Shown: positions 30,926-47,678, counted from the first letter of the stretch. The stretch is 64,000 bases of DNA from Candidatus Bathyarchaeia archaeon (GCA_049512075.1 JBEKXL010000002.1:32001-96000); one strand, 5' to 3'. Program-made: numbers and translations. Notes: generated by a model from the sequence alone, not told the origin.

Positions 30926-31861
30926 TTATGGGTAGTGTTGTGCGTAGTGTTTTGCCAGGATGGATAGATCTGACAAGCTGACTTTGCCGTCGCCGTTTAT
31001 GTCCGCGTTGGCGTTCCAGTTTGGACTAGAAGGCGTGGTGCCATAAGCCTTTACGAGCACGGACAGGTCAGAGAGTCCGACTCTGAAGTCTCCGTTGACA
31101 TCGCCTGGAATCGTTAAGACTACTGAACTTTCGGCTGTTAGGTTGCCTGCTGTGACATTTAGGTTATAGTTACCGCATGGAAAATTAGTCGTATTCCAAG
31201 GGAACGAGAGAATTGAACTCCCAGAAACATTAACGCCTGTTTCGGTTCCTATGGTCGTCGCGTTACTGGACAGTGTGACGTCGAAAGCCCAAGGAGGATC
31301 ATCCAAATTTATGAGAGACACATTCAAAGGCAGGACGTATCCTTGTCCAACAACAGTCTTCGAGGGCACGAGACTTATCGGCTGATCTACGTTCACTTCA
31401 ATGGGCCCTGTTTCAAGCTCATACAAGCCATCTTGCGAGGAACCATAACCGTATATGTAGTAGGCTCCGGGCGAAACAGGAGTACCTTGGGAGAATAACG
31501 TGTCGTTACAGGTCTGTGGCCACGTCAAGACTCTAGTTATGTTCTCTCCAGGATCAAGGGACAAATCAACGATGACAAACGGGAAAATTCTGGATTTTGA
31601 CCATTGATAAATATAGCCTGTGTCATTGTGAACCAGAAGGTCAAAGGTTTTTGCCCAGTATTGGAAGGTTATTGTTTGATTGCTAATGTTCGTGACCGTG
31701 AGCGTTACGTTTATCGGTTCACCCACATAGTAGTCGGTCTTTTCAACGGTCATCGTGAGCTCAAGCTGTTCGTCCGCCTTCACAGGTTGAATCCTTAACG
31801 CTAATGCCGACACGCCTAGGCAAAGCATAACAATAATTATACCCGAAAATAACCGCTTCAA
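30926..31861 (-). CDS. Secreted protein with Ig-like domains and C-terminal dockerin
   Basis: Signal peptide; two Ca-binding repeats GDVNGDFRVGLSDL / ADINGDGKVSLSDL. Confidence 0.85.
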   Translation of the reverse strand: MKRLFSGIIIVMLCLGVSALALRIQPVKADEQLELTMTVEKTDYYVGEPINVTLTVTNISNQTITFQYWAKTFDLLVHNDTGYIYQWSKSRIFPFVIVDLSLDPGENITRVLTWPQTCNDTLFSQGTPVSPGAYYIYGYGSSQDGLYELETGPIEVNVDQPISLVPSKTVVGQGYVLPLNVSLINLDDPPWAFDVTLSSNATTIGTETGVNVSGSSILSFPWNTTNFPCGNYNLNVTAGNLTAESSVVLTIPGDVNGDFRVGLSDLSVLVKAYGTTPSSPNWNANADINGDGKVSLSDLSILAKHYAQHYP

Positions 31862-32094
31862 CTCACCTTCCTCCTAACTCACTATTAGTTCAACTAGTAG
31901 ATAAGCCTTTAGACGCGTTCCAAAAATGTTTCCGCAACATCGCCTACATCAATTCCATACATAGTGAGCCTGCTCGTAGTAGCCCGCGCATAATGTTGAT
32001 AGCTAGTTAGACAATCACTAGCCATTCCTTCCCCTCTTAAGCGCACGCGCTCTTATCCAACGTTTTTCCAACGTATAGCGCGCACTAGAACAGG

Positions 32095-32817
32095 TTAGGG
32101 GTATTGTTGTCCATAGTGTTTTGCTAGTAGGGATAGGTCTGAGAGGCCGACTTTGCCGTCGCCGTTTATGTCCGCGTTGGCGTTCCACTTTGGACTGTCT
32201 GGTGTGGTGCCGTAGGCTTTTGCGAGGATGGATAGATCAGACAGGCTGACTTTGAAGTCGCTTTTGATGTCGCCTGAAATTGTTACCGTTACAGTGCCCG
32301 TGTAAGTGAAGTTGTTGGCTGCTTCATTGACTCCGTTTGGCTCGCAATAGGCACTCAGTGTGTAGTTGCCATAGGCGCAGTTTGAAGTGTTTCCACCACA
32401 AACGAGGTTAACTGAAGATCCATTCAACAAGTTGAAAACATTGGTGTTGTTCAGAGTTGTTGCGTTAGCAGACAGAGTCAGCGTAACGTTTTCAGGGTTG
32501 TCTCCAGCGTTGTTGATCGTAACGTTCATTGGAATTGGGTAACCTTGGCCAACTACGGTTTTGGAAGCTGTAAAACTTGCTACACAAGGCGCAGTAAGAT
32601 TGACATTCTGACCTGCATCTATTTGCGAAGTCAAGACATCAGAGATTGAGCAGCCTTGCTGAGTCGTACTGAAACAGGTGACGGTGGCATTCAACACATT
32701 GTCTCCAGCACTTATTGACAATCCTGAACTCGAAGGTGTGAGGGTGTAATTGAGGTAGCCTTGAGTTGTCGATGCATTCAAAAAGTACGTATATCCAACA
32801 ATCTGACCAGATGCGTA
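32095..32817 (-). pseudogene. 5'-truncated dockerin-tailed surface protein
   Basis: C-terminal dockerin; frame continues upstream of TTG 32781 (YASGQIVGYTYF) to the (GC)5 tract at 32818, with no signal peptide, ATG or promoter space. Confidence 0.75.
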
Positions 32818-33792
32818 GCGCGCGCGCTGGAGAAAGGTTGCTTCGTTGTAAGGGACAAAGAACAGAATGTTCAGCGTTATCCTTTGTTCGAGAACGAGAT
32901 AGGGGAAGTAGTTCTGAAAAGCGGCAATCTTGTTTCAACAGGAGCCTTAGCTTCTCTGGGATTCTGGGACATAGACGTTCTGATCGTTACCCAGAGGGGT
33001 CAGCCTGTCGCCATGTTGAAAGGCCTAGACGATGATAGCCACGTTAAAACTCGAATCAGTCAATATGAAGCCTCTGAGAATGGCAAGAGAGCCTCCGTCG
33101 CTAAGAAGATAGTAGCCTCTAGAATTGAAACCGAGAACCTTGTCCTAAGAAAATATGGCTTGCGACAACATGACCTACTTACAGTTAAGAGGGCAATTGA
33201 AGAAGTCAATTCTGGAAACATAACAACCAAGCTCATGGCAATTGAAGGCCATTGTTCAAAACAATACTTCAAACAGGTCTTCCAACTATTCCCCAGTTTC
33301 ATTCGAGTTGAGAATCGTAAAACCTTCAAGGCCTACGATGGACTCAACAATCTTTTCAACCTTGCCTACACCGTTCTGAAATGGAAAGTTTACAGAGCCA
33401 TAGTTAGGGCGAAACTTGAACCGTATCTGGGCTTCTTGCATTCTGAACAGTTCGGTAAACCTTCTCTGGTCTGCGATCTGATGGAGCCATATAGGTGCCT
33501 AATTGACGATTTTGTTATCCAATATTGCCAGAGCCTGAAAAGGAAAGATTTTGGTATGAAACACGAAGACTACTCTTCCAACAGAAAGGGAGAAAGGGAA
33601 TATTTGAACAAGGGTTTGGCAAAAGACATGATGAACAAGCTGAACTTCTTCTTTGAATCAACAATTCAAATACCTAGAGTGAAGCACGGCAACAAACAAA
33701 CCGTGGAGACTCTGATTAACGAAGAAACAATGCTATTCGCCAGATACCTGAGAGACGAGAAACCGAATTGGCATCCAAGGATCGTCAAGTAA
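32761..33792 (+). CDS. cas1: Solo Cas1 endonuclease/integrase, apparently 5'-truncated (Cas1-like from ~32827)
   Basis: IEG (E), NNLFNLAY, LEPYLGFLH (H), SLVCDLMEPYR..ID catalytic motifs; first 22 codons are antisense of the neighbouring gene plus the GC tract. Confidence 0.9.
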   Translation: MSCRCIQKVRISNNLTRCVARALEKGCFVVRDKEQNVQRYPLFENEIGEVVLKSGNLVSTGALASLGFWDIDVLIVTQRGQPVAMLKGLDDDSHVKTRISQYEASENGKRASVAKKIVASRIETENLVLRKYGLRQHDLLTVKRAIEEVNSGNITTKLMAIEGHCSKQYFKQVFQLFPSFIRVENRKTFKAYDGLNNLFNLAYTVLKWKVYRAIVRAKLEPYLGFLHSEQFGKPSLVCDLMEPYRCLIDDFVIQYCQSLKRKDFGMKHEDYSSNRKGEREYLNKGLAKDMMNKLNFFFESTIQIPRVKHGNKQTVETLINEETMLFARYLRDEKPNWHPRIVK

Positions 33793-33812
33793 GGCGCTAG
33801 GGACGAAATGGT

Positions 33813-34508
33813 CTACACAGTTTTCTTTTTCATCCACAGAAGCCCGATTATCATCCACACAGTAAAAGGTCTTTTACTATGCGTTCCTAACGCAAACCAT
33901 GTGTCATATTTCTCTTTCATGTTGTGATAGCACATTTCGGTTACTTTCTGTTTTGCAGTCTCCTTGTTCGGATAGTTGTTCCAAAGTACATGCGCCCCCC
34001 AGTCGAAGCATTCCATATAATGGGGATGCCTCTGACAAACTTCACAGGGTTCTTCGCAGTTCCATTTATAGAAAAGACCAACATTGCCATAAGGCTGCTT
34101 CCGGAAAACTCTGCCATTCAAGGTTAGCTGGACCACTTGCTTCTTACGTTCAATGATATCAAATCCGACGATCTGTGGTTTTACAAGGACGAGTGATCGT
34201 TTCTCGCTGATTGGCACGTCCAGCGACTTCTCGGACAAATCAACAAGAAAACGCCTTCGCTCTTCCCTGTCAGTTAGCTTCTTGCCCGATTGGATGATGG
34301 AGAAAGGTTCTATTTTTCTGCTTTCAATTCGCGGATCGCGATCGGGTTCTGTGGTCCTTACTTTAATAAAATCCCAACGGTGTATTTTTCTCGCAACACT
34401 ACCCAAACGCATCGGATAAAGGCGCCTCCATTCCTTTTTCTCATTTACACCGGCTGTGCAAACAAGGTAAGACCCATGTTTACCGCTCCAATTCGGGGCA
34501 GCTTCCAC
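33813..34508 (-). CDS. Hypothetical protein (VCTAG...WRRLYP family)
   Basis: 231-aa ORF co-oriented with ParB-ASCH; motifs VCTAG, WRRLYP, DPR.ES, DWG, LGT; frame open to 34547. Confidence 0.75.
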   Translation of the reverse strand: MEAAPNWSGKHGSYLVCTAGVNEKKEWRRLYPMRLGSVARKIHRWDFIKVRTTEPDRDPRIESRKIEPFSIIQSGKKLTDREERRRFLVDLSEKSLDVPISEKRSLVLVKPQIVGFDIIERKKQVVQLTLNGRVFRKQPYGNVGLFYKWNCEEPCEVCQRHPHYMECFDWGAHVLWNNYPNKETAKQKVTEMCYHNMKEKYDTWFALGTHSKRPFTVWMIIGLLWMKKKTV

Positions 34509-34547
34509 AAGTACCAGGACTGATTCATCTTGATAAACCGTAGGAAT

Positions 34548-35552
34548 CTACTCCGTCCTCTGAAATCCTATCACACAGACGATTTCATTATCATCCCAGT
34601 TCTCATGAAGATTCCGCCAAACTTCCTTGAACTCCTTCAATGTATAGCCGCCTTCTTTCTTAGCATCGTTTTCTGTGAAATCTCCAAGTCGTTTCCTTTG
34701 GATGGAAGTTATGCGCAGATTAGCAAAATGGGGTTCCCAAACAGCAGCATGAATTGTCGCCCCAACAACAATTTTTGGATCTGGCAGTCCTTTCCGTGAG
34801 GTTTGAGTCTTTGTACCTTCAAGAATCGGCTGCATATGGGTGAGTCGAAAAGGCATTTCGTAAGGGGCCTCTACGACTTCTTTGAAGATTTGCTGTATTG
34901 ACTTTTCAGGTTCTTTTGCGGCTTTTGATATCACTTCTCTTGCCTGTCTTCGATAAATGGGTCTTCTTGCAATTTCCTTCGCTATCGACACTTGTTTCGA
35001 GGGTTCCTTTATCTGTCGAGTTATTGTTACGGCCGTGTCCCAATCGATTTTGCCCTGTTCACGAGGAACCCCGATCTTGGCAGCAGGTGCTATCATGACC
35101 TGCAATTCTCTAGGCGCGTTCACTAATTCAAGCCACGCATTAATCGTCCTATCAGAGACCCCTAACGTTTTGGCCACGGCGGCAGTATTGGGAAACTTTG
35201 AAGAGTATCTCTCCATAAGCTGCTTGCAACTATTGCCTTTTTCGACTGCATTCAAATCCGCGCGCTGAATATTCTCAATTAAGCTGAGTTCGATAACGTC
35301 CTCATCTGAATAGTCTCGTATCATTACAGGAACTCTTTCGAGTCTGGCCTTTTTTGCAGCCCTGTAGCGTCTTTCACCCACGACAACTTCGTAATGATCC
35401 CCCACAGGACGTATGATGATTGGTTGGAGCAAACCTTTTTCTTTTATGTTCTGGGCCAACAGATCGAGTTCTTCATTATCAAAATCCAATCTTGGATTGA
35501 AACGGTTCGGCCGAATTTTGTTCAATTCAATTTCTTTTATATCTCCAGCCAT
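34548..35552 (-). CDS. ParB/Srx-domain protein with HTH and C-terminal ASCH domain
   Basis: NPR, GLLQPIIIR, VVGERRYRA, ENIQR.DL; C-terminal ILEGTKTQTSR...DAKKEG..L.EF ASCH signature. Confidence 0.88.
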   Translation of the reverse strand: MAGDIKEIELNKIRPNRFNPRLDFDNEELDLLAQNIKEKGLLQPIIIRPVGDHYEVVVGERRYRAAKKARLERVPVMIRDYSDEDVIELSLIENIQRADLNAVEKGNSCKQLMERYSSKFPNTAAVAKTLGVSDRTINAWLELVNAPRELQVMIAPAAKIGVPREQGKIDWDTAVTITRQIKEPSKQVSIAKEIARRPIYRRQAREVISKAAKEPEKSIQQIFKEVVEAPYEMPFRLTHMQPILEGTKTQTSRKGLPDPKIVVGATIHAAVWEPHFANLRITSIQRKRLGDFTENDAKKEGGYTLKEFKEVWRNLHENWDDNEIVCVIGFQRTE

Positions 35553-35695
35553 CCCAATCACTCTCCCATGATGCAAATTCCACAACCGACTTAACTATGA
35601 CTGCCTCGCCGGATTTATAAGACTTGCAGGGCGCACCATCGCGCACGTGATGCGTGAGTTTTTTATCCCAGCACTTTTGATAGTGTAAACGTTGG

Positions 35696-37786
35696 TTGGT
35701 CAAAATGGAGATATCGCAGCTGAGAGAGTTGCAAAACCATTTCGAAGTTGCTCGAGCAAGCACCCAAGAAGCCCAACAATTGTATAAAGAATGTGAGGAC
35801 CTTACTTCGCAGTTCCAGCAGAAGTTTCGTCGAGATAAAATAGGTTCAATGACTCTCCCAGAGTACGTTGTAGGTCACGAAAATAAGGATTCCTTTTGCT
35901 ACTGGCTGCAATTCAAAACTAGTAAGGTTGGAGAAATCTTCGTTGGTGGCGCAGCTTTAGCGTTTGGAGTCTATTATAGCAAGAAAGACAACGCCTACAG
36001 GGTTTTTGACGGAAGTAAAGTTGGCGTAGTGCCTGACGATGAGGCATCTAAGCAATTGGAAAGGATTAAGGCCGGATTAGTTGAACTGTTGAGTTTTGCT
36101 GAAAAGAAAGCTTTTGCAGATATGATAAGGGTCTCAAAACAATTACTTCTCGATTACCAAGTCGTAGGGAAAATTCTAACTCTTTATTTTCCTGAAAAAT
36201 ACTTGGGTGTCTTTTCGAATGGACATGTGAACGAATTCCTTGAAAGTTTTGGAAAACTAGACGATAAGACAAAAGATTCACACATCTTTGAAAGAAGATC
36301 GATACTTCTGGAATTCAAAGAGAACGATGAAATAATGAAGAATTGGACAAACAAGAAGTATGTTGATTTTCTTTATAAGGAAATACTCAAAACGCATGTG
36401 CCTGCATCCTATTTCGTTTTGCGGACAGGCAGCGAAGAATACTCAGATCAGCCGGAATCAAAATACAATTTCAAGGAATCTATCCCGGGTTCTGTCCAGC
36501 TTCGAGTAGCTGAAAACAATGGCTGGTTCGTCTATCTCGAGAAAGATGTCTTCTATGGAACTGGCAGAATTGGCAAAATTTCATCTTATGAAAAAGATGG
36601 CGTAACGTACTACGATGCCGAAATACTGGATTACATTAAGATAGATCCTGTAAAGTTCGACACCATTAAAGACAGACTAAGCTTCAAATCCATAGGCCAA
36701 CCTGGCATCCAAAGAATATCTGAGGCTGACTTCAAAATCATTGCAAAAAGCCCAAAAATTCCGGCCCTTACTCTTCACCCAATTGAAGATATCGTCAAAT
36801 ATATAAAATCAAAAGGATTCTTCTTTCCTATAGAGACTATAATCAATTATCACACATGTCTGTTGACGAAGCCTTTCGTCATTCTGTCAGGAATTACAGG
36901 AACAGGCAAGACCAAACTAGCAGAACTTTATGCTAATGGTCTATACGGAATTGAAAAGGATAATCCATACTACAGAAAAGTAGCTGTCCAATCAAACTGG
37001 AGCGACAGCAAACCACTTCTGGGTTATTACAACCCGTTCATAGGAGCGTATCACACGACTCCTTTCCTTCAGTTTGTTCTGAAAGCAATTGAAGACTGCG
37101 ACAGCTGCGGCCTCAACAACGGGGGGAAATGTTCAGATTCCACCAAATGCAGCTCAAAATATTTCGTATGCTTAGATGAAATGAACCTCGCCCACGTAGA
37201 ATATTACTTCGCAGATTTTCTAAGCGCAATGGAGACAGAAAACAAGACGATAAATCTTCACCCTGCAGGTACAAAAACTGAAGAAGGAACGTCAATACCT
37301 AGTAAGATTCGAATACCTGATAATTTCTACGTCATCGGCACCGTCAATATTGACGAGACAACCAAGGAGTTTAGTCCCAAAGTACTAGACCGGGCCAACA
37401 CAATTGAGCTAGACATCGTAGACCTAGAGAAGTGGAAAGAAATCCAGCTGAGCTTAGGCATCAAAATAAACGAGGAAGCATTCAAGGTCATAAACGAAAT
37501 CCACTCTATACTGAGAAAATATAGTCTGCACTTCGGCTACAGAGTTTGCAACGAAATAATCAAGTATATCGAAAACTCGAAACTGAGCCTCTACGAATCT
37601 CTAGACCTTGAGATAAAACAAAAAATACTACCAAAACTAAGTGGAGACGACAATCCCCGACTCAGAAAAAGTCTTGAAGAACTCAACCAATATCTCACAG
37701 GTAGACAGTGCGAACAGTCGCGAACCAAAGTCGCAAACATGCTTGAAAAATTGAATCAGTATGGTTTCACATCCTTCTATGACTAG
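35696..37786 (+). CDS. mcrB: McrB-family AAA+ GTPase (type IV restriction)
   Basis: ILSGITGTGKT, LDEMNLAHVEYYFADFLS, GTVNIDET, SPKVLDRA, QKILPKL. Confidence 0.9.
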   Translation: MVKMEISQLRELQNHFEVARASTQEAQQLYKECEDLTSQFQQKFRRDKIGSMTLPEYVVGHENKDSFCYWLQFKTSKVGEIFVGGAALAFGVYYSKKDNAYRVFDGSKVGVVPDDEASKQLERIKAGLVELLSFAEKKAFADMIRVSKQLLLDYQVVGKILTLYFPEKYLGVFSNGHVNEFLESFGKLDDKTKDSHIFERRSILLEFKENDEIMKNWTNKKYVDFLYKEILKTHVPASYFVLRTGSEEYSDQPESKYNFKESIPGSVQLRVAENNGWFVYLEKDVFYGTGRIGKISSYEKDGVTYYDAEILDYIKIDPVKFDTIKDRLSFKSIGQPGIQRISEADFKIIAKSPKIPALTLHPIEDIVKYIKSKGFFFPIETIINYHTCLLTKPFVILSGITGTGKTKLAELYANGLYGIEKDNPYYRKVAVQSNWSDSKPLLGYYNPFIGAYHTTPFLQFVLKAIEDCDSCGLNNGGKCSDSTKCSSKYFVCLDEMNLAHVEYYFADFLSAMETENKTINLHPAGTKTEEGTSIPSKIRIPDNFYVIGTVNIDETTKEFSPKVLDRANTIELDIVDLEKWKEIQLSLGIKINEEAFKVINEIHSILRKYSLHFGYRVCNEIIKYIENSKLSLYESLDLEIKQKILPKLSGDDNPRLRKSLEELNQYLTGRQCEQSRTKVANMLEKLNQYGFTSFYD

Positions 37787-37810
37787 CACCCATTAGAGGG
37801 CAACGCTTGC

Positions 37811-39421
37811 ATGGAAGACAAAAAACTCATCTTCAAGATAGACGGGGTAGAGAAGGACCTATCCGAAATCATAGAAGTCGACGAGCTTCAAAAATGCGTT
37901 TTCTCAATAGAACTTGACCAGGATGTGCCCCTTTCACTCTTCATAAATCAAAAAGAGGTTGAAATGGATCAAATCCTTAAGAAAGAAGCTCACGCGGGAT
38001 ATTACTACCGCTCAAGATTGCCTTATCCCTTTGATGAAATTGGGATTTATGTTCTTAAGCTGGTCACAGATGGAAGGCAAATAACTCAAAAGATTAGAGC
38101 TAGGCCGATAAAGATCTCCATGGAAGACTACCGAGTTATTTTGGAGGATATTAGGAAAGAGACTTACAACTTGGTTTTCTCCGTTTTTGGACAGAGTTCA
38201 GAAGATATCCGGTTGGCCCATCTCTCTGGGCAAACAAGCTTCATAGAATACATTTCATTTTTCAGAAGAAATTTCAGCGATTTCTGCGAGGTATTCAGAA
38301 GGATTGAGAAGGACCCCAACTGCGATCTAATTAAAAGGGAAAGAATAGCCGAGATATACGATACGAACATTTTCGATGATATAATCGAGTTTGAGAAGAC
38401 AGAAGACGCTATTTCTCCAATTGAGCGAAAACTTGGCTTCTACCCGAAGCGAGTTTCACTTCTTGAGAGTGCAAGATCCTTCAATGTCTATGAAAATAGG
38501 CTACTCAAACATTTCTTAGGACTTATCATCAACAAGACAGCCTTTTTGGAATCGGCACTGATTGAGGAAATAAAGACAACACAAGATAACAGTGATTTTT
38601 TTGCCGGTTCGAATGAAAGGATAAAGAAGTTGGAGGAGCTCAAGAAGGAATGTGGAAGATACGAAAAAGTCGCTCAGAACATGTGGAAAAGAAACTTTCT
38701 TGATAACGTTTCCAAGATGAATGTCGTGAAAACATCAATGGTTCTGCAAAAAGAACCGAGGTACCGATCTTTTTACAAGCTGTATCAAGATTTCAGAAAA
38801 AATTCTTTGGTAGAAATCAATTCTGATTATTTCTATATACCCATCAGACGGGCTTGGCAAGTATATGAGATCTGGGCGTTTCTGAAGGTCGCAGAGGTCC
38901 TCGTTAGAAAAGGGTTCGTTCCTCAACAAGGGTTGTTCAATACTTCAGAAAGAATGAGCCATGACGTCAAAAATGTTAATTTCAATTTTAATCTGAAAGA
39001 GAATATTCCTCTACTAGAACTGAAGGGAAAAAACCTTGCGGCAAGAGTGTACTACCAGCGGTCTTATGCAGTTGCTTTCATCAGTGGCTACGGGTCTACA
39101 GATCCTTATGAAAAGAAACCAGACATAGCAATCGAGTTTTTCACAAATAATAACCCAATCCCTGAAATAGTCATTCTTGACGCCAAATACAAAATAGTCG
39201 AAGAAAGACCTCCGCAAAGTACCCTGAAAGATATGAGCTATTATGTTGAAACTATCTGCGATGAGGATAAAAACAGAATCGTGAAGAGTGCGCACGCAAT
39301 ATACCCGGGCAAGTACACAGAAAGCTACGGAAGATGCGGTTATGTCGGGCTTATTCCAAAAGGAGACATGTCCAAATTCGACAAAGATATCGAAAAACTA
39401 ATCTCAGCATATTTGCAATGA
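37811..39421 (+). CDS. mcrC: McrC-like DUF2357 / PD-(D/E)xK nuclease
   Basis: YENRLLK, YEIW, KPDI, ILDAKYK; directly downstream of McrB. Confidence 0.85.
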   Translation: MEDKKLIFKIDGVEKDLSEIIEVDELQKCVFSIELDQDVPLSLFINQKEVEMDQILKKEAHAGYYYRSRLPYPFDEIGIYVLKLVTDGRQITQKIRARPIKISMEDYRVILEDIRKETYNLVFSVFGQSSEDIRLAHLSGQTSFIEYISFFRRNFSDFCEVFRRIEKDPNCDLIKRERIAEIYDTNIFDDIIEFEKTEDAISPIERKLGFYPKRVSLLESARSFNVYENRLLKHFLGLIINKTAFLESALIEEIKTTQDNSDFFAGSNERIKKLEELKKECGRYEKVAQNMWKRNFLDNVSKMNVVKTSMVLQKEPRYRSFYKLYQDFRKNSLVEINSDYFYIPIRRAWQVYEIWAFLKVAEVLVRKGFVPQQGLFNTSERMSHDVKNVNFNFNLKENIPLLELKGKNLAARVYYQRSYAVAFISGYGSTDPYEKKPDIAIEFFTNNNPIPEIVILDAKYKIVEERPPQSTLKDMSYYVETICDEDKNRIVKSAHAIYPGKYTESYGRCGYVGLIPKGDMSKFDKDIEKLISAYLQ

Positions 39422-39561
39422 CATAAAACTTGTTCAATATTGTCTAAGAGAATGAAACCAATGTGACGTGCACATTTTTGTGAAGGTTAGTTTTTACTAA
39501 AACTGCACTACTCGTCACACGCGCAACATTGTCCACGGGGTAATGAGTTTCGAATTCTGCT

Positions 39562-42500
39562 CTAGCGCGGGCTAAATAGACTCTTCCTCAGTATGTCTGC
39601 ATCCTTTAGTGCCATAATTAACGCAGCCAAAGAAAGGTCGCCCATATTTGTCTTGCCTTGGGACAAGGTAACCATCTTCGCATTTCGGGCATGCTTTCGC
39701 CTGAAAAGAGCATTTATCATTGGAGCACAGATATTTTGAGTTATCCTTGTATAGAAAACCGTTGCCACCTTCTGAGTAATCCTCTCTGCATTTTGGACAA
39801 CTCCTCGGAACATAGCTGCAATACGGGCTGTTGCTACATTCGTACCATCCGCGCATTTCATTCCTAACAATAATTCCAGTTGTGCAGACTGGACAATTAA
39901 TACTCCTTTTCAGCTTCTGCCCAGTTGTATTAATCTCATAACCGTTATTTTCTATCTCAGTGACAAAAGTTGAAACATTGAATGGTTCATCAACAACTAA
40001 GTAGACATGCTTTCGAGCTCTTGTGATTGCCACATAGAATAGTCGTCTTTCTTCGGCGTTCGGGAAATTTTCACTTTTGGCCTTAACCAAATCCAATACA
40101 GGGTCATTTTCGATTTGGCAAGGAAAACCGCGTTCTCCGCTTCTTAACCCTATTACTATGACAGAATGGACTGTGCGTCCTTTTGACTTATGTATTGTCG
40201 TGTACTCTATCTCAAGCTTAGGATTATTCAATATTAATTCGTCGATATTACTTGGTTTTCCTATTTCTTCATACCTGTTTAATATCAAGATTTTTTCTTT
40301 TTCTTGGGCGTCTCGATTTATTTCTTGAATTATTCTTTCGAGTGCGGATTCCGTTTTTTCTTTGACAATGGTCACAGCAGGTTTATTGTCTTTCTTTTTG
40401 CTTATGATTTGTTTGCGTATCTGGTATGAGTTTTCAAGGATAAATCTGGTTGAAAAGTCACACAATTTGTCGCTGAATCTGTGGGTCTCCTGTACTAATC
40501 GTATTTCGCTGGGACCAAAATATCTTTCGAAATGAGTCATAATAGAGATATCGCTACCTGCGAACCGATTGATTGACTGCCAATCATCACCCACGCAGAA
40601 GAGTTTGGAGTTATTTTGGTTAAGCAAGGCTTTTAGAAACCTGTATCTACTTTGCGAAATGTCCTGAAACTCATCAACTAATACATATTGGAATGGAGAT
40701 ACGTACTTGTTCTGTTCAATCAAGTTGGTAGCTTTGTTGATCATGTCGTTGAAGTCAATTTCGCCATTTTGCCAAAGACATTCTTCATAGTCTTTGTAAA
40801 TGACTGAGAATATATCTAGGAAAGCTTTTGTTCTCGTATCATCTGGACTAATTTCGCTTTTCAGTGTCTCGAGACTTTTTCCACTTGACTTGAACAAGTT
40901 TAGGAAGGTAGACAGAAGCGAGGCTAGAGAATTGACTTTGCCCATTTCGTTCAATTTATCGAAAATTTGATTACTTGGGAGTGGAGCAAATACTACTCCT
41001 CGTCTTAAAAGTTCCGTTTCGAGCTTTTTCAACAGGTTGCCCGCCTGCCTTTCGTAGGTGAAGGTTTTGATCAATGTCGTTTCGTTCTTCTCATGCAGGG
41101 CAACTTTCCAATTCATGTCTGCTATGTACTTTTCCCGTGGAACCCAGGGCGCTGTTCCTCCATTTTCATCTATGCCGAAATGCTCTATGTAAATTCCTGA
41201 TTCTGGAAGGGTGAAATCGGGTTTGTATTGACCGTGCTCTGCATCCGATGTTTTTTCTTTATAGGGGTGTTCGTAGATGTAATTTACTCCGTTTACGTAG
41301 AGGAAATTGGCAATTTCGCATTCTTCAAGACTCTCCACCCTATGCCCTTGCAGTGCGCGGGTTCCGTTATCCCTTAGGTATTGATAGTATTCTCCCAGAG
41401 AGTTGAACTCGAATATGCTCCTATACATTTGGAAATTCCAAAGGAAGTAATCATTAATGAGTCTGGCAAAATTCTCTTCTTTCATTCTATTTCTTATCAA
41501 TTCAAGAATTCTTGATTTGGAGGCAAGCTCATCTTTTGCTAAGGGGGATAGGGTTGGCATGTCCTTTTTTGACTTGCCAATTATTCCACGTCCTAAGCTG
41601 TGAAACGTCTTCACTGTAAACTTGATACCAGTTTTATTGTTGACTTTCTTTTCATTCTCCTTAGCAACAGACTTGTTGAAAGCTATGAGTAGTATGTTTT
41701 CTGGAGCTGCCAGTCCTTTTGACACTATATAGAACGCTTTTCCTAAGAGGGTTGTAGATTTTCCAGTTCCTGCGCCTGCAACTACAAGGTTATTGGCTTC
41801 GTCTACGACAATTGCTCTTTTTTGTTCTTCAGTCAAAGTATTTCCATCGATTTTTTCAAATAACTCGGATTTTAGAATCTCTTCTTCAACATAACTCTTA
41901 TTACGCTCTCCTAAGAGCCGCTCACCATCGTTATGGATTGATACAACTAAGTCAAGCGAATCCTGAAAATCGATTTCTGTGACACCTTTTGCCTTACATT
42001 GTTCGGCGATGGGGACTAGGTTTCTCCATTGTTCTTTCCACGACTTCAGTTCTCTCTTGGAGAAGTATTGTTGCCTATTATAGAGTGATGTGAAGTCTTT
42101 CTCAGCTTGCAAAAATGTTTCTCCAAGTTTCATTGTTTTCTGTTTTAGTATGTTTCTTTCAAGCTTCTCGTTATAGCCAATAACAAACTGCCTTGACTGC
42201 GCTATTTCACTAAGTGTTGAAGAAATGAGTTCTGAATCAAGAAAGTTCAAGGGCTTCAGGTATTCCATATCCGCTTTGAATGTCCCAAAAAGATTCAGTA
42301 ATTTCTCCTCTTGTTCGTTTGACAAGAATTCGTGATGGGCCTCGATGGCTTTAAGTTGCTGTCTTTGAACCTCCAAAGTGTCCCTGATGCGAGATTCAAC
42401 GTTCTTTGTCAGAAGAGCTTTCTGCGTCTCATATTGCAGTATGTGCTGATCGACGTCTCTATAAATGAAACGGCCAATTCCAATTTTCTTCAAGATTCTG

Positions 42501-42677
42501 CGAATACGCTTAGCTCTCATTAGTTTAACGATTTGCCGGTGTAGATTTTTCAACTCTTCAACTGCCGATCGCAACGGCATCGTTTCAGTCACTGATTTTC
42601 AGGCCACCGCGATCCCCATTACATTTCTTATCTTATATTGAGTTTTCCAAATTAGCGTTAGTTAGCCCGCGCGCTAG
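39562..42677. mobile_element. Inverted-repeat-bounded unit carrying the helicase gene, no transposase
   Basis: Left CTAGCGCGGGCTAAATA (39562) vs reverse complement of right end CTAGCGCGCGGGCTAACTA (from 42677). Confidence 0.5.
39572..42592 (-). CDS. UvrD/helicase IV-like SF1 helicase with embedded PD-(D/E)xK-like domain and C-terminal topoisomerase-type Zn ribbons
   Basis: AGAGTGKST, TFHSLG, VDEFQD, VGDDWQSI.RF, TIHKSKG, EERRLFYVAITRA; insert IANFL...YE.PY...YKPDF..IEHFG; repeated CP.C. Confidence 0.92.
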   Translation of the reverse strand: MTETMPLRSAVEELKNLHRQIVKLMRAKRIRRILKKIGIGRFIYRDVDQHILQYETQKALLTKNVESRIRDTLEVQRQQLKAIEAHHEFLSNEQEEKLLNLFGTFKADMEYLKPLNFLDSELISSTLSEIAQSRQFVIGYNEKLERNILKQKTMKLGETFLQAEKDFTSLYNRQQYFSKRELKSWKEQWRNLVPIAEQCKAKGVTEIDFQDSLDLVVSIHNDGERLLGERNKSYVEEEILKSELFEKIDGNTLTEEQKRAIVVDEANNLVVAGAGTGKSTTLLGKAFYIVSKGLAAPENILLIAFNKSVAKENEKKVNNKTGIKFTVKTFHSLGRGIIGKSKKDMPTLSPLAKDELASKSRILELIRNRMKEENFARLINDYFLWNFQMYRSIFEFNSLGEYYQYLRDNGTRALQGHRVESLEECEIANFLYVNGVNYIYEHPYKEKTSDAEHGQYKPDFTLPESGIYIEHFGIDENGGTAPWVPREKYIADMNWKVALHEKNETTLIKTFTYERQAGNLLKKLETELLRRGVVFAPLPSNQIFDKLNEMGKVNSLASLLSTFLNLFKSSGKSLETLKSEISPDDTRTKAFLDIFSVIYKDYEECLWQNGEIDFNDMINKATNLIEQNKYVSPFQYVLVDEFQDISQSRYRFLKALLNQNNSKLFCVGDDWQSINRFAGSDISIMTHFERYFGPSEIRLVQETHRFSDKLCDFSTRFILENSYQIRKQIISKKKDNKPAVTIVKEKTESALERIIQEINRDAQEKEKILILNRYEEIGKPSNIDELILNNPKLEIEYTTIHKSKGRTVHSVIVIGLRSGERGFPCQIENDPVLDLVKAKSENFPNAEERRLFYVAITRARKHVYLVVDEPFNVSTFVTEIENNGYEINTTGQKLKRSINCPVCTTGIIVRNEMRGWYECSNSPYCSYVPRSCPKCREDYSEGGNGFLYKDNSKYLCSNDKCSFQAKACPKCEDGYLVPRQDKYGRPFFGCVNYGTKGCRHTEEESI

Positions 42678-42846
42678 CTCCACGCTAACGTACTGTTTCC
42701 TTGCTAACTAACTAACCCCCTACTGTGATCTCCATTATTGTTTATTTTTGGCCGTGTTTTGCAAAATTAGCCTAGTTAGCTGGTTAGCAAAGGATCAATA
42801 CTATACGAAGATGTATAGCACAACCTAAGCTAACTTGCTAACTAAC
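42657..42846. repeat. CTAAC/GTTAG short-repeat cluster
   Basis: GTTAGTTAGC 42657, GCTAAC 42685, GCTAACTAACTAAC 42703, TAGTTAGC 42773, GGTTAGC 42782, GCTAAC 42829, GCTAACTAAC 42837. Confidence 0.7.
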
Positions 42847-42903
42847 CGTAAGGGTGGCAAAATCAGTGACCCGTAGAGTAGGTGACCATGGCATTGGTTG
42901 GTT

Positions 42904-42920
42904 GGGGTAAAGTTTACCCC
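42904..42920. repeat. 17-bp palindrome GGGGTAAAGTTTACCCC (copy 1)
   Basis: Perfect 8-bp arms; 16/17 copy at 47490-47506. Confidence 0.8.
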
Positions 42921-43229
42921 TTAGAACGCACGCACGCTCTCTCGCTCTCTACTACTCTCTGCTTCTTACTCGCACAACACCATGCCCTTTACCTTCCAAC
43001 CTACCTACATATACATACCTACCTAGTGACACTCGCACGCTGTGCGAGTGTGATCATATAAAACGGGGGGAGAGGAGAGACACACGAGCACAAACACGCA
43101 CAAGAGAGAGACAAGACTATCTACGGCGGCTACTAGGTGTAGTTGTTTTCTGCTTTTGTGTGCTGCTACTACTATTAGTTAACCTAGTACACCTTGTTTT
43201 CTGACGCTCAAGCAAGCGTTGATTCTGAA

Positions 43230-43395
43230 TAGCGCGCTAGCGTGTTCCTAAATTCCCTTTTCTGGGCGTGACGAGTTGGTTCATGTCCTACAGACGATAC
43301 TTCTCGCATCAATAGTCACACGGTCATCCACGAACCAAGCGAGCCTATAACAAAAACCAGCTCGCGAATGAATTTAGGAACAGGCATGCGCGCTA
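43230..43395. mobile_element. 166-bp MITE-like element with 26-bp terminal inverted repeats
   Basis: TAGCGCGCTAGCGTGTTCCTAAATTC (43230-43255) vs revcomp of 43370-43395 TAGCGCGCATGCCTGTTCCTAAATTC, 23/26; internal IR 43272-43281 / 43355-43364, 9/10. Confidence 0.75.
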
Positions 43396-43554
43396 GACAG
43401 CGGATTCTTCGACAATCTAGTAACCACTGACGACTTGAACGGCATAGACAACGACAAGGTGATCAGCATCATTCAGGACATCAAGAGCGATAGTCTGAAG
43501 GTTTCAAAAAGCGACAAATTCTCGAAACATCACTATGAGCTCTGCACAAATTAA
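43393..43554 (+). pseudogene. Start-less coding fragment between two junction motifs
   Basis: Open 53 codons LDSGFFDNLVTTDDLNGIDNDKVISIIQDIKSD...HHYELCTN-stop beginning at the MITE end. Confidence 0.4.
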
Positions 43555-43588
43555 GGGTCGAAACTCGCCCTAGTCAACCGCCTGAAAC

Positions 43589-46500
43589 GCCTAGCGCGCG
43601 CACTACTGTTGCGAGTGCTCTTGAGAGTACGAGAACCACCCAGTTGTTTTCGCTAGCCGGACTTTCAGTTCACAACCCTGCGTGCTCAGAACCCTCAGAT
43701 TGAGTTTTGTAGCCTTCACTTGGTCCTCTGTTCCAGCCATGAGTAACGCAAGCAATGCGTAGATCTTGCGGTATTCCAGACCAACAATGCCTTCCATGTA
43801 TTCTTGATCGTCTAGTGGAAACTTCAATTGATCCTTCCCCTCAAACGCTTCTATGAACCTCTCCACTTCCATTTTTGTCAGTTCGATCGGTGTCAGTGTT
43901 TCGCGATCCTTAAAATTACCGAAACTGAAAAGGGAATCACTTGGACTTGCGAACCTGAAGCAGTCAGGTTTCAGAAGCCTCAAATATGCGTTGTTCATGT
44001 CCATCATGAAGCGCATAGATTTTTGCAGGAAACTGTAAACATAATCTTGCTCAGGTGCTCCTATCGAATCTTCCTTCATATGCGCCACTCTTATATTGAA
44101 GTCAGCGAATGTGGCAAGATAACTGTCCAATTCTTGTTCACTCCCCTTAAAAATGGACGTGAATAAACAATTCCAGTTATGTCGTCCTTCCGGGCTACCA
44201 TGCATTCCTGTCATCAAATTCCTGTATTGCCCTCGATTCAATTGCTGAAACTCATTGCGGGACACTGAAAAACCTTTGGATGTCTCCTGTTCAATGTTCT
44301 TGGCTATGTACTTTCTGGAGTCTGCGTCAAGAAATCTCATTCTGTTCTCAAAGCTGCCATACAATATCGTGAAGACATTGTACAGAAAGGTCCGAAGTTT
44401 TCTCTCTGTTACCCTTGTCAATCTGCCAGCGACTTCGTCATATCGGTTCTCTCTCCACAAATCTCTACATTCATGAAGCAATCTTATCTCGTCATTTTTC
44501 AGACCAACTAAGGGTATGTGCAGCTGTTGGGATTTCTCATATTCTTCCTTAAAGAAGTTGAAGACCAATGGGAAAGCTTCTCGATAGATTGACACAACCT
44601 GGGCCACGAGTCTCCTTTTGTCTTCATATTCCAAAGCAACTGCCCTTGTGAACTGCTGTATAACTTCTGGTGACCACCAAAAATCCTTCCAGAAGGACAG
44701 AATCTGCAAATCACTACCTCCGATAGATCTTGGGATTTTCTCATATGCTTGATATGTAGTGGTCAGCTTTGCAAGCGAAGTCTTGCATCTTTCTACAAGT
44801 GCATTTGCTTCTTCTTCACTGTCTAGGTATTTGTAACCTGACTCTATTATTTCACAATGAAGATTTCGGGCACTCTCTAGATGCTCACGAACCAAATCGT
44901 GTTTCATCTTGGATAGCATAGCGTCAAGACTCTGGATTTCTTCACTTCTTAGTTTCAGTTTTCTTTTCTCCGCTTGAGATTCTACAAAGTACAGTCTTGG
45001 CAAATAATCCTCCAAAGACAAATTGTAACGTCGTATTATCTGCCCGTTCACATGTAGCAATTCTTTCGAGATTCTCCAGACTAGTCTGCCCTCATCCACT
45101 TTCCGTATGAGACCTGCACGGGCGAGTTGCTGAAGAAAAGGTGCCTCTTGTTCTCGAATCTCAGAGTCTGGCAAGCTTTTCCTCTCATATATGGACACGA
45201 GTACTTCAAAGCATCGTCTTTTTTGAGCCGGCTTGAGTCCTTTAGCTCCATACAAAAGCTTATTGATTTGCCTTCTTGCCGCGTCGTCCTTCTCCAAAAC
45301 TGATTTTATCTCTTCTAGTGTGCTTACAGGAATCTTGACGGGATTAGCACTGAGCGCATCAAAATGATTAGCCTCGAATTCATTGATGACCTCACGCATT
45401 ATTCTTCTGAATGTTATTTCCTGTCCATTGTACTGCAGTCCCTTGTAGATCTTCTCAATGAAACGACGTTCCAGCTGACGAGGATTATCAGGGTTTTTTG
45501 CAAACGCTCGCAATCTCCTGTTAATGGCGTCGTGTGCAATATCCATCTTCAGCGGAGGTATGCGTTCTAGTGCATGCACAGAGCCAGAGAAAAGTGGGTC
45601 GTTTGTCATCTTCTTCTCCCATTCAAGTGAACCAGCAACAAAAAAGGCAATGTTCAATTTGGATTCCCTACGCAGTTTCGATCCAAGCACCTGAAGGTGG
45701 CTCATAAATCTCATCGCCTTTTCCAGATCACCTTTGTGTAAATCATCGATGAAAACTACGAAACCTTTTGCGAAACGCTCAATCTTCTGATCAGCCAGCG
45801 CAATAAGAAGCTGTGCAATCGCCTTCTCATCATCTGAAGCATCTAAGGATGGCAGACCCCTACCCGTCAGGACAGAATACAAACGAATTAGTTCCGTGTT
45901 CAGTTGCCGTCTGAACTCAAAAACCAACTCGCGGACCTCAAACTCTCCTCCAAGCTGGATGTAAATTGGGTATATCCTGCAATCATATAGCAAAGGCTCG
46001 ACATATTCAAAGAAAGTTGTCTTTCCAGAACCAAATTGGCCAAAGACAACGATATTTCTGAAAAGGTCTTTCGGGTTCTTTTCAATCAGGGTCACATACT
46101 TGTTGAAAATCTCCGTCTTGCATACAACCTGATCATACAGGGCACGGTCAATTTCCTCAAGCCCTTCTAGTCGGTGAAAAGGGTCTTCCCTCAGACCTAG
46201 CTTATTCCACCAAGGCACATATGGTATGTCTAGATCTGAGGACTCTCCGTTTTCAGGTATTTCAGGAACCATGTAGTCTTCTTCATCTAGAATTGATGGA
46301 ACGGAAAAATATTGTTCTGTCCTTTCCGCAATCTCTTGATCCAATTCTTGGAGTTCTTCTTTCTTTTCTTGAATGACCTCCTCTCTAGCTTGTTTTTTAA
46401 ATTCCTCTTTCAGTTTCTCTCCATATTCTGCCTCTTTGATTTTTGACACGTCGACTAAAGGTTCGTTCTTCTCAAGTTTGAGGCGTAGCCTCTCACGATA

Positions 46501-47069
46501 ATAGGTCTTATTTGACACTTTATCTCTGAAAAAAGGCAGGGCCAGAATACTTTCGAGGTCACTCTCATTTCCAATCTGGGCGCTGTTAATCATTCCCTCC
46601 AGAATTTCTGCGGCAATGTCAGAGTCTTTGGGGACGCTCCGCTCTCTAGCGAATTTCAAGAAGAATTCCTGTTTGAGCCTTTTGAATACCTCAGCGGGAA
46701 AAGGATCGACTCGGAACATTGCCGAATTTCGCTTTATGAACAAACGAATGGCTTCGCGCCTGTCCAAGATATTCGCATCCTTAACTCATCAAAAGTTATA
46801 TCCGTTGTCGAATTTAAGGTTGTGGCAAGTGTGACCTGGAGCGCGCAGGCGTGCTAAACTCCGAAGAGTTATCATAACCGTATGAAGGATGTTTTATTTA
46901 TTTACGACCAAAACAACAACCCGTAAGAGAATCAGAGAAGATGTAAGGATTCGAATCCTCACCTTATACCAGAATCAATGTTGAGACCTGACTTGCAACC
47001 TAACTGAATTAAACTTGCGTGGGCTTTCATTTCTTAGTAAATTACAAGCAACAGTCGCGCGCGCTAGGC
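43589..47069. mobile_element. TIR-bounded 3.48-kb unit carrying the P-loop ATPase gene, no transposase
   Basis: Perfect 13-bp IR GCCTAGCGCGCGC (43589-43601 / 47057-47069), followed inward on both sides by ACTGTTGC. Confidence 0.6.
43603..46767 (-). CDS. Large P-loop NTPase with probable C-terminal Swt1-like HEPN domain
   Basis: LGLREDPF, Walker A GQFGSGKT, Walker B VVFIDDLH; C-terminal ERKLRTFL...YG...NW..LF..IF...NIRVAH. Confidence 0.75.
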   Translation of the reverse strand: MDRREAIRLFIKRNSAMFRVDPFPAEVFKRLKQEFFLKFARERSVPKDSDIAAEILEGMINSAQIGNESDLESILALPFFRDKVSNKTYYRERLRLKLEKNEPLVDVSKIKEAEYGEKLKEEFKKQAREEVIQEKKEELQELDQEIAERTEQYFSVPSILDEEDYMVPEIPENGESSDLDIPYVPWWNKLGLREDPFHRLEGLEEIDRALYDQVVCKTEIFNKYVTLIEKNPKDLFRNIVVFGQFGSGKTTFFEYVEPLLYDCRIYPIYIQLGGEFEVRELVFEFRRQLNTELIRLYSVLTGRGLPSLDASDDEKAIAQLLIALADQKIERFAKGFVVFIDDLHKGDLEKAMRFMSHLQVLGSKLRRESKLNIAFFVAGSLEWEKKMTNDPLFSGSVHALERIPPLKMDIAHDAINRRLRAFAKNPDNPRQLERRFIEKIYKGLQYNGQEITFRRIMREVINEFEANHFDALSANPVKIPVSTLEEIKSVLEKDDAARRQINKLLYGAKGLKPAQKRRCFEVLVSIYERKSLPDSEIREQEAPFLQQLARAGLIRKVDEGRLVWRISKELLHVNGQIIRRYNLSLEDYLPRLYFVESQAEKRKLKLRSEEIQSLDAMLSKMKHDLVREHLESARNLHCEIIESGYKYLDSEEEANALVERCKTSLAKLTTTYQAYEKIPRSIGGSDLQILSFWKDFWWSPEVIQQFTRAVALEYEDKRRLVAQVVSIYREAFPLVFNFFKEEYEKSQQLHIPLVGLKNDEIRLLHECRDLWRENRYDEVAGRLTRVTERKLRTFLYNVFTILYGSFENRMRFLDADSRKYIAKNIEQETSKGFSVSRNEFQQLNRGQYRNLMTGMHGSPEGRHNWNCLFTSIFKGSEQELDSYLATFADFNIRVAHMKEDSIGAPEQDYVYSFLQKSMRFMMDMNNAYLRLLKPDCFRFASPSDSLFSFGNFKDRETLTPIELTKMEVERFIEAFEGKDQLKFPLDDQEYMEGIVGLEYRKIYALLALLMAGTEDQVKATKLNLRVLSTQGCELKVRLAKTTGWFSYSQEHSQQ

Positions 47070-47110
47070 AATATTGCTATGAGAAAAAAGAAGGGGCAGA
47101 TATTTTTGTT

Positions 47111-47416
47111 CTATTTCAGGAAGAGTTTCGCGCTTTCTTCAAGAGTCATTACTGGAAAAACTTCATTGTTGTGGAGCGCCCCCCAAGCCATCATTTCAGG
47201 TTCCATCGAAAGTTTCATCAATGCCTCGAAGCTTGCATCCCACAAAAATACAAAGCGGTGATTTCCCCCATCATGCCATCCCCCGACAAGCTTAACACCG
47301 TGCTTCTTTGTTAGTTTATCCAGTTTTGCGCTGAGGTTGCTACTTGCCTTCATCGCTTTCTCATTGTTCAGCGGACAACTTTCAGGCGAATGTCTTGAAA
47401 TCTGCATAAAGAGCAT
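47111..47416 (-). CDS. Small hypothetical protein (DUF3303/GYD-like)
   Basis: MLFM..SRHSPESCP, GVKLVGGW, PVMTLEES; TATA-like element upstream. Confidence 0.7.
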   Translation of the reverse strand: MLFMQISRHSPESCPLNNEKAMKASSNLSAKLDKLTKKHGVKLVGGWHDGGNHRFVFLWDASFEALMKLSMEPEMMAWGALHNNEVFPVMTLEESAKLFLK

Positions 47417-47489
47417 AATACAACCTTCTAGGACAACTGTTTGCTTGTCTAAGTATATATAATGTTCGCATCGCGTCTTTGTGTGTGTG

Positions 47490-47506
47490 GGGGTTAAGTT
47501 TACCCC
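47490..47506. repeat. 17-bp palindrome GGGGTTAAGTTTACCCC (copy 2)
   Basis: 16/17 to 42904-42920, near island right end. Confidence 0.8.
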
Positions 47507-47678
47507 AACCCAAATTCTTAATCCACCACTCTCTTACACATACACTCACTCAGCGCGCACAGAAAGAGTCTCTAAGGCCAGCTAGGGCAGTAAAGTATCG
47601 AAAAGTAGTGCCTAAATATATATATGCTTGTAGCTTAAGAATGGCTCTGTAGTTAGTCAGTTGCAGGTTGGCTTGCAC

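Follow-up and report, generated by a model that had tools for sequence, protein, structure and literature searches.

Short TA-(GC)3-5-TA palindromes in a Bathyarchaeia lineage: tips of DDE transposons and, possibly, joints left behind by them

[quoted passage not shown] The same features surround a palindromic motif, TA-(GC)3-5-TA, that we analysed in a 64,000-nucleotide stretch of DNA from a Candidatus Bathyarchaeia archaeon (GCA_049512075.1, JBEKXL010000002.1:32001-96000; hereafter the window), and in the genome to which it belongs, that of a peat archaeon (G000, in which the window is C2:32001-96000; 2.73 Mb, 86 contigs, 99.8% complete). A sequence-only reading of the window had listed twelve copies of the motif within an accessory island, and had interpreted them as recombination sites, element ends or fused-end scars of an undescribed system that captures gene modules with an integron-like outcome. 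We find that the alternating GC core of the motif (hereafter the run) forms the tips of ISs and MITEs, is spread between genes throughout the genome, and lies beside about half of the homology breaks that separate G000 from its closest relative. The subterminal TGTTCC-AAA core of these elements resembles, as we take it, IS5- and PIF/Harbinger-type ends.

The elements nevertheless differ from the IS5/IS1182 group in that their transposases score below the curated NCBIfam cut-offs (best matches: IS1182, 77 and 127 bits against a cut-off of 270; IS5_4, 50 and 87 bits against 140), in that no consistent target duplication was seen, in a tip that is a pure GC palindrome, and in the number of solitary tips, which exceed elements by about 10:1. 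Such solitary tips call to mind the excision footprints of cut-and-paste transposons such as the eukaryotic Tc1/mariner group, short end-derived sequences that remain at the donor site and mark past insertions. Classic footprints lie between two copies of the target duplication, whereas the two flanks of the runs described here are independent of each other, and the runs also replace hundreds of base pairs of flanking DNA. To our knowledge, excision footprints have rarely been reported for prokaryotic ISs.

A further parallel is offered by repetitive extragenic palindromes (REPs), which form bacterial interspersed mosaic elements (BIMEs): they too number in the hundreds and go together with a transposase, domesticated or resident, of the RAYT kind. 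REPs are imperfect palindromes of 20-40 nt, whereas the unit here is 6-10 nt and Y1 transposase genes fail to track it: Y1_Tnp is present in G000, G001 and G002, and no Y1 transposase was found in the run-rich genomes G003, G004 and G021, so that a link to this enzyme was rejected. Integrons, defined by an IntI-type tyrosine recombinase that adjoins attI and an array of cassettes bounded by attC, show the outcome once proposed for the island, namely gene modules split by a recurring site. Their attC sites are, however, imperfect inverted repeats of a larger size than a 6-10 nt run; no adjacent integrase, attI or array was seen here, modules seldom carry the site at both ends, and the site is spread through core intergenic DNA. 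Casposons are marked by Cas1 together with a family-B polymerase, by terminal inverted repeats and by a duplication of about 14-15 bp. The island shares with them a solo cas1 and imperfect 15-16 nt direct repeats at its ends, but a casposon reading was discarded, as no terminal inverted repeats were found; no family-B polymerase is among its 10 open reading frames (ORFs), and unrelated cargo without cas1 occupies the same site in G002 and G003. Finally, HIP1 (GCGATCGC) of cyanobacteria is likewise a lineage-specific, hyper-abundant, short GC-rich palindrome, and the excerpts of two reports link it to orphan methyltransferases and describe it as very abundant, with more than one copy per gene in some genomes (PMC5861425, PMC4390886). 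By contrast, coding DNA shows no enrichment of the present motif, whose conservation falls below that of random words and which is gained by insertion. No C5 methyltransferase (PF00145) was found in G000, G001, G003, G004 or G021, and G002 gave a sub-threshold match only; a link to such an enzyme was dropped.

Two of the listed sites, at 43230 and 43388, proved to be the two tips of a single MITE (43232-43393). Five further copies of it, at 96-98% identity, are present in G000 and more in G002, and the conservation of these copies spans exactly GCGCGC to GCGCGC. A scan of G000 for ends that match GCGCGC-N5-TGTYCCKAAAT returned 153, together with 35 elements whose ends are paired, 32 of which have the size of a MITE (131-503 bp). 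The inverted ends read GCGCGC-N5-TGTYCCKAAATT with GCGCGC as the outermost hexamer. TA flanks both sides in 11 of the 35, and no other direct repeat was seen at the flanks. An autonomous element with TAGCGCGC ends does exist, outside the window: an IS of 1109 bp (G000 C32:7469-8577) bears the ends GCGCGC-TGCCT-TGTCCCGAAATT, and its 289-aa ORF matches DDE_Tnp_1 (E = 5.9e-17) and DUF772 (E = 6.6e-6). The earlier suggestion that the motif represents element ends is thereby borne out for the inverted-repeat tips of ISs and MITEs.

Ends of the GCGCGC-N5-TGTYCCKAAATT type were found on IS copies of five genomes (G000, G001, G003, G004 and G021). A transposase of at least 70% identity is encoded in the same five and, as a fragment, in G024; the 33 genomes in which the perfect 12-mer TAGCGCGCGCTA occurs once or not at all have none. 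This 12-mer occurs 16 times in G000 and 3, 9, 10 and 23 times in the other four genomes of the genus, and 10 times in G021, a member of a different genus, with 0-3 copies in each of the remaining 35 relatives; the reversed 12-mer, used as a control, is absent from all 41 genomes. G002 encodes relatives of the transposase at 41-45% identity, and its 41%-identical IS bears MITE-type ends, such that the hexamer stands at a fixed distance of 5 nt from TGTYCC even across IS lineages this far apart. The DDE transposase, coded outside the window, is the best candidate for the enzyme.

The motif is by no means confined to the island. ORFs of at least 90 aa were called greedily and without overlap over the whole genome, which gave 2549 ORFs and a coding fraction of 80%. 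A genome-wide count confirmed the excess of the motif, with GCGCGC occurring 1873 times in 2.73 Mb compared with 203-543 times for the other six-letter palindromes counted. The density of GCGCGC is ordinary within ORFs (238/Mb) and about ten times higher between them (2475/Mb), TAGCGCGC is 23 times denser between ORFs than within, and (GC)n-TA words top the intergenic 8-mers by frequency and by enrichment, ahead of TATA-like words. In all, G000 holds 1445 runs, 918 of them intergenic, with a length of 6-10 nt (six are longer). About 30% of all intergenic regions contain one (28% of tandem, 37% of convergent and 29% of divergent regions), and this spread rules out a site specific to the island. 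The runs favour DNA that differs between genomes, at 2.5/kb in intergenic DNA that varies between G000 and G002 versus 0.97/kb in aligned intergenic DNA.

Among the intergenic runs, 94 adjoin the inverted-repeat core of an element; 816 do not and are here termed solitary. At element ends the run is exactly 6 nt long in 77 of 94 cases; among solitary runs this length accounts for 253 of 816, and there is a sharp limit at 10 nt, which only 5 of the 816 exceed. As in a footprint, the 6-10 nt of a solitary run are made of element-end nucleotides, that is, of the letters of the terminal hexamer.

The relation of the runs to structural change was assessed against G002, the closest genome (about 95% identity), over 1.52 Mb in two separate contig sets. 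Each gap in homology has four ends, a run was counted as near when it lay within 3 nt, and the null expectation was 2.3% for positions drawn at random from intergenic DNA, or 0.7% if every position was allowed. A run was near 33 of 67 gaps and 52 of 268 ends (p = 5e-32) in the first set, with 480 kb aligned, and near 44 of the 84 gaps and 67 of the 336 ends (p = 1.6e-41) in the held-out set, with 515 kb aligned, which amounts to 77 of 151 homology breaks and 119 of 604 ends for both sets combined. Breaks thus fall on the motif about eight times more often than random intergenic positions do, in a test that had been set beforehand. An inverted-repeat core lay beside only 4 of the 52 run-abutting ends of the first set, the other 48 having none; therefore, the break signal is not simply one of MITE presence or absence. 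In about half of the gaps none of the four ends carries a run, an example being a gene-sized difference from G004 at 27799-28592 of the window. Runs at both ends were seen in 7 of 104 variable segments of at least 50 bp, compared with 4.4 expected by chance. Three breaks fall in the window, namely at a run (30852), directly after a G002 run, GAGCGCGCGC, that abuts the point where homology resumes (47591), and at the 12-mer 62175, which marks the exact edge of a differing segment of 13.4 kb, where G002 C5:162455-170752 stands against G000 C2:94175-107624.

Smaller differences carry the same mark. Within alignments, 5 of 12 indels of at least 10 bp are clean GC-run blocks of 10-15 nt. A filler of 5-16 nt in one genome stands opposite at least 60 bp of the other in 13 cases; GCGCG or CGCGC is present in 11 of these fillers, and a twelfth is GCGTGC followed by GC. 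By an arithmetic estimate from intergenic densities, about one such case in ten would be expected by chance. In one instance ACCGCGCGCGT of G000 replaces 776 bp of G002 that encode the DEAD_2 part of an XPD-like helicase, and at this locus the run is the derived state. In another, GCGCGCG of G002 stands opposite an 835-bp segment of G000 with small ORFs. The opposite picture also occurs: a 110-bp insertion in G000 (GCGCGCG) and a 302-bp insertion in G002 (AGCGCGC) each lie between duplicated runs, with a single run in the other genome.

The XPD/Rad3-like helicase itself (DEAD_2, HBB, Helicase_C_2), which adjoins an HhH-GPD glycosylase gene, is decaying in both genomes, being frameshifted in G002 (C2:53484-56159) and internally deleted in G000 (C13:23643-25591).

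The best explanation that we can offer, and one on which our own judgement is evenly balanced, is that TA-(GC)3-5-TA is the signature of lineage-specific DDE transposons and of the joints left behind by them, and not a site proper to the island. The more than 800 solitary runs would be joints at which DNA beside or between element ends was excised, lost or swapped, and we infer that they are made by the transposase or by the element ends. Two palindromic end-hexamers, being direct as well as inverted repeats of each other, could fuse via their self-complementary GC overlap to yield runs of 6-10 nt; the route may be transposase cutting followed by end joining, or else slippage or microhomology joining. 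Runs would pile up at the borders of gene modules because such events would be tolerated between genes and in accessory DNA, and each run would later decay by transitions. Of the sequence-only reading, the part that speaks of element ends and fused-end scars at junctions stands, since solitary copies do behave as joints, both in their enrichment at breakpoints and in the replacement of DNA by a run. The integron-like capture system gains no such support, with no dedicated integrase, no attC-like site seen and runs at both ends of so few variable segments; nor does the suggested part of Cas1, whose family fails to track the motif whereas the IS5/IS1182-like DDE transposase tracks it.

Several observations weigh against this explanation. 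No target-site duplication was seen among the 35 paired elements or at solitary runs, and the sequences on the two sides of a solitary run are statistically independent of each other, which also speaks against a duplicated TA target. TA forms the outer flank of 60% of element ends versus 20% of solitary runs. Two in-phase hexamers predict even lengths, but 9-nt solitary runs (149 of 816) are more numerous than 10-nt ones (87), and the CGCGCG phase is common among the runs. None of 41 elements has both flanks collinear between G000 and G002; elements sit at homology edges, and no locus with an element in one genome and a bare run in the other was found among them; the nearest case is a MITE tip at G000 C4:14726 opposite the G002 run GTGCGCGC at the same junction. 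Neither runs nor elements occur at the ends of the long alleles that face run fillers; one-step excision of a run-ended element is therefore insufficient, and several steps or another process must be assumed. The polarity of the run is established for a single case and suggested for one more: when four run indels were polarised with outgroups (G001, G003, G004 and G021), three were unalignable and one suggests a gain in G002. Finally, all genomes are metagenome bins, the relatives are not independent of one another, and the ORF map is crude.

An extension of the idea, unlikely in our estimate though worth keeping in view, is that bare (GC)3-5 runs are both product and substrate of a break-and-join activity, in which DNA between two runs would be deleted, copied or exchanged and each event would write a new run. 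The enzyme would most likely be the GCGCGC-tipped transposase acting without its subterminal binding site, failing which an unrecognised enzyme. Taken as a rival to the transposon explanation, with runs as sufficient sites for a cut-and-join reaction that moves any DNA between two of them, whether by an unrecognised enzyme or by the transposase on bare runs, the proposal, which corresponds to the module-by-module rearrangement of the sequence-only reading, appears decidedly doubtful. It draws on a 287-bp non-coding repeat family of eight listed copies (e.g. G000 C8:6408-6694), mostly with GCGCGCGC at both ends (two are truncated at one end); the family lacks any other inverted repeat, and a scan of Rfam gave no match and one for ORFs nothing convincing. 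It draws also on the 302-bp insertion of G002, which consists of four sub-modules divided by runs, parts of which recur singly at other loci of G000 and G002. This family and the re-use of sub-modules make mobilisation by bare runs conceivable. The 48 of 52 run-abutting break ends that lack a core would fit as well, as would the 773 intragenomic repeat alignments, of which 99 have a run within 8 nt of both ends and 203 of one end, in counts that include families redundantly. Yet only 7 of the 104 variable segments carry runs at both ends (4.4 expected by chance), runs are absent from the ends of the long alleles that face fillers, the borders of the island do not lie at runs, and no enzyme is linked to bare runs. 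If this proposal were true, the lineage would possess a system that shuffles modules across the whole genome at a palindromic 6-10 bp site, for which we know of no prokaryotic precedent; it would account for repeat families without inverted repeats, mosaic intergenic regions and GC-run deletion fillers, and if bare runs sufficed for mobilisation, they would constitute a new minimal recombination system.

Runs might, alternatively, exist beforehand as a preferred landing site at which ISs, MITEs and other DNA insert with duplication of the run, a reading that we find improbable. The 110-bp and 302-bp insertions, with their duplicated runs and the single run of the empty allele, are what it predicts; the flanks beyond the hexamer are not direct repeats, which agrees with it, and at some junctions a run common to both genomes is followed by divergence. 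A duplicated target should, however, mirror the lengths of solitary runs, and 69% of these are longer than the 6 nt seen in 77 of 94 element-end hexamers. This fixed 6-nt tip speaks for a hexamer that belongs to the element and not to a duplicated target, and its constant spacing of 5 nt from TGTYCC across transposase lineages of 41% identity also speaks against a landing site. Furthermore, the run is derived in the XPD case, and the origin of some 900 runs would be left unexplained.

A very unlikely reading is that the run is a host motif under selection, be it the binding site of a dimeric protein, a terminator or insulator, or an element forming Z-DNA. Its palindromic form and strongly intergenic position would suit such a role, as would a peak in the first 20 nt past stop codons and in convergent regions, but the position relative to gene starts and stops is otherwise broad. 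Within the alignments, 24 of 61 and 29 of 69 runs in the two contig sets are identical in G002, compared with 59% and 62% of length-matched random intergenic words (p = 0.003 and 0.0014). Conservation below that of random words speaks against selection for binding or termination, makes it improbable that the runs are functional sites, and implies that they are constantly made anew. Their changes are mainly C>T or G>A, or the loss of a whole run. In addition, runs appear and disappear as blocks, have a higher density in variable than in conserved intergenic DNA, and were not found or were rare in most sister genera searched.

It is highly improbable that the solo Cas1 integrates DNA at runs and duplicates the run in the manner of a CRISPR repeat. 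G000 does hold four full copies of this cas1 family and two fragments (further loci are C1:348849-349808, C43:4-969 and C37:3461-4210), G004 one full copy and seven fragments. The DNA repeat that the window gene shares with its C1 paralogue (C2:64828-65485 versus C1:349804-349147, 89% identical; the proteins are 81% identical) begins directly after the run 32818-32827, and the two insertions between duplicated runs could also be read in this manner. The family does not track the motif, however: run-rich G002 has a broken fragment only, none was found in G001, and G008, G012 and G030 have the family with zero 12-mers; moreover, the runs lack regular spacing and no casposon-sized duplication was found at them. 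Tyrosine recombinases are represented in G000 by 22 Phage_integrase matches, none of them in the island.

A HIP1-like iteration of the palindrome through methylation or mismatch-repair bias, or an artefact of assembly or sequencing, is barely credible. In its favour, the palindrome is short and hyper-abundant and decays chiefly by C>T and G>A changes; on the other side, the five genomes named above gave no PF00145 match (G002 the sub-threshold one only), runs appear by insertion and not by substitution, and coding DNA shows no excess of them. Against an artefact speak the presence of the motif in at least eight separate genome bins and the independent short-read contigs that span all window sites unchanged. 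The C>T and G>A decay of the runs is an observation of its own, given that no C5 methylase was found.

The collection of literature that was searched, including passages of PMC13343696, describes neither the motif nor such scars in archaea. Should the transposon explanation be true, this lineage would hold a readable record of its rearrangements, with a scar of 6-10 nt on about half of the structural differences between two close genomes, and the scar could serve as a direct marker for mapping gene flux and deletions in uncultured archaea. Donor sites of prokaryotic transposons are usually thought to be lost, and such an abundance of transposon-derived joints would be unusual in a prokaryote. 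As regards annotation, the explanation would caution against taking the motif for a regulatory site or for a recombination site specific to the island.

The island itself was delimited by its empty site. In G004 and G001, two genomes of the same genus, position 30695 of the window is joined directly to 47611, the empty site reading CCGACA[CCTTAATCTATATAT]GYGTGTAGC, and the ends of the island carry the imperfect direct repeats CCTTAATCTATAATAT and CCTAAATATATATAT. From this join it follows that the island sits between direct repeats in an AT-rich, TATA-like divergent promoter and not at a run. By Pfam, its cargo comprises two dockerin proteins, Cas1, ParB-ASCH, an AAA_5 protein with a neighbouring DUF2357/PDDEXK_7 gene, a UvrD helicase and a STAND-like ATPase. 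The unrelated cargo at the same site measures 4.6 kb in G002 and 7.2 kb in G003, and G002 has no more in common with the island than its initial 156 bp and its final 20 bp. In its behaviour the site resembles a hotspot of integration. No integrase or recombinase was found among the 10 ORFs of the island, nor among the 8 ORFs of the G002 and G003 cargo. The intergenic DNA of the island contains 9 runs in about 2.45 kb, roughly twice the genome-wide 1.68/kb (Poisson p = 0.025, with the crude ORF map).

A second class of differences between G000 and G002 consists of insertions of 1.5-20 kb between direct repeats of 7-22 bp, mostly AT-rich (TTATAAATA, AAGCTTAATT, AGCTAAGTTAAA, TAACCATAATTA and AATTTATAAG). 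Examples in G000 are C30:13482-19122, C13:41021-61149, C12:45909-51931 and C18:31915-34891. These insertions look like integrated elements with promoter-like attachment sites.

The features of the window are collected in Table 1. All twelve sites of the sequence-only reading were recovered where it had placed them. Nine contain a (GC)≥3 run (32076, 32816, 42663, 43230, 43388, 43592, 46839, 47057 and 47551), and three are degenerate (31980, GCCCGCGC; 33790, AGGCGC, which is weak; and 39563, GCGCGGGC) and look like decayed runs. TAGCGCG occurs 12 times in the window versus 4.1 expected, and GCGCGC 27 times versus 12.1; none of 100 shuffles reached either count. Nine of the 12 TAGCGCG matches fall within 31980-47560. 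The sequence agrees that all three stop codons said to use the TA of the motif (33790, 39572 and 43603) do so. One of the sites said to lie between modules, 32816, falls inside the longest cas1 ORF call, though probably upstream of the true cas1 start. As for the statement that no TAGCGCG was seen by eye inside intact core genes, one copy (49398) lies inside an ORF, and GCGCGC is also found within ORFs at 1583, 5242, 20125, 20627, 25674, 35260, 60378 and 63638; nor is the motif confined to the island, as the copies at 62175 and 62334 lie beyond it.

Table 1. Coordinates of the island, the motif copies and associated features in the window
Feature	Position	Strand	Remarks
Variable island, 16.9 kb	30696-47610		Missing from G001 and G004; other cargo at the same site in G002 and G003
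Run GCGCGCGCG	30852-30860		G002 homology (96% identical until here) ends exactly at the first base
Degenerate run TAGCCCGCGCATA	31980-31992		Between the 50-bp leader of dockerin paralogues and the gene 30926-31861
TAGCGCGCACTA (run 32078-32083)	32076-32087		Separates two dockerin genes
Solo cas1 gene	32761-33792	+	Pfam; not counted as part of the motif system
TAGCGCGCGCGCTG (run 32818-32827)	32816-32829		Distance 0 to the start of the 89%-identical DNA repeat with the C1 cas1 paralogue
TAAGGCGCTAG	33790-33800		Weak, degenerate match without demonstrable membership of the motif family
Degenerate run TAGCGCGGGCTA	39563-39574		Right TA within the minus-strand helicase stop codon; 14-nt inverted pair with 42659-42672
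TAGCCCGCGCGCTAG (run 42668-42674)	42663-42677		Upstream of the helicase gene
MITE, 162 bp	43232-43393		Ends GCGCGC-TAGCG-TGTTCCTAAATTC / GAATTTAGGAACA-GGCAT-GCGCGC; TA flanks on both sides
TAGCGCGCGCACTA (run 43594-43601)	43592-43605		CTA 43603-43605 is the minus-strand ATPase stop codon
GAGCGCGCAGGCGTGCTA (run 46841-46846)	46839-46856		Upstream of the ATPase gene
CGCGCGCGCTA, 9-nt run	47056-47066		
CAGCGCGCAC (run 47553-47558)	47551-47560		38 nt inside the resumption of G002 homology (47591)
Perfect 12-mer TAGCGCGCGCTA	62175-62186		Outside the island; exact edge of another 13.4-kb segment differing from G002
Run GCGCGCGCG	62334-62342		Same intergenic region as the 12-mer at 62175

The junctions were also checked for support by reads. 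Contigs assembled from four public peat and wetland short-read runs, two of which may stem from the source sample while two are independent, span every listed site with zero differences, and the listed junctions are therefore not chimeras of this assembly. These contigs break only inside the MITE 43232-43393. Joints of contigs with short sides (21-33 nt) lie mostly inside the MITE, and the rest link repeated parts of the island; they were read as other repeat copies and left uncounted.

Further repeats occur in the same region. A 50-bp sequence at 31989-32038 recurs in G000 upstream of paralogous dockerin-domain genes (C11:16578, C11:17319, C1:104603, C12:70087 and C3:106024) and is probably a shared promoter or leader, and as a conserved leader of these paralogues it was ruled out as a mobile end. 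The UvrD-type helicase gene is flanked by a 14-nt inverted pair, GCGCGGGCTAAATA and TAGTTAGCCCGCGC (39565-39578 and 42659-42672), which represents two degenerate runs sharing a GGCTAA extension and may be due to chance, being one of 29 inverted pairs of such size. The near-palindrome GGGGTAAAGTTTACCCC was ruled out as a second genome-wide motif, with only 4 (loose) matches in the genome. In its 21-nt form, GGTTGGGGTAAAGTTTACCCC, it is present at 42900-42920 and 47490-47510 as an inverted pair 4.6 kb apart, which encloses the MITE and the STAND-like ATPase gene, each copy adjoining low-complexity CT/CA/GT tracts.

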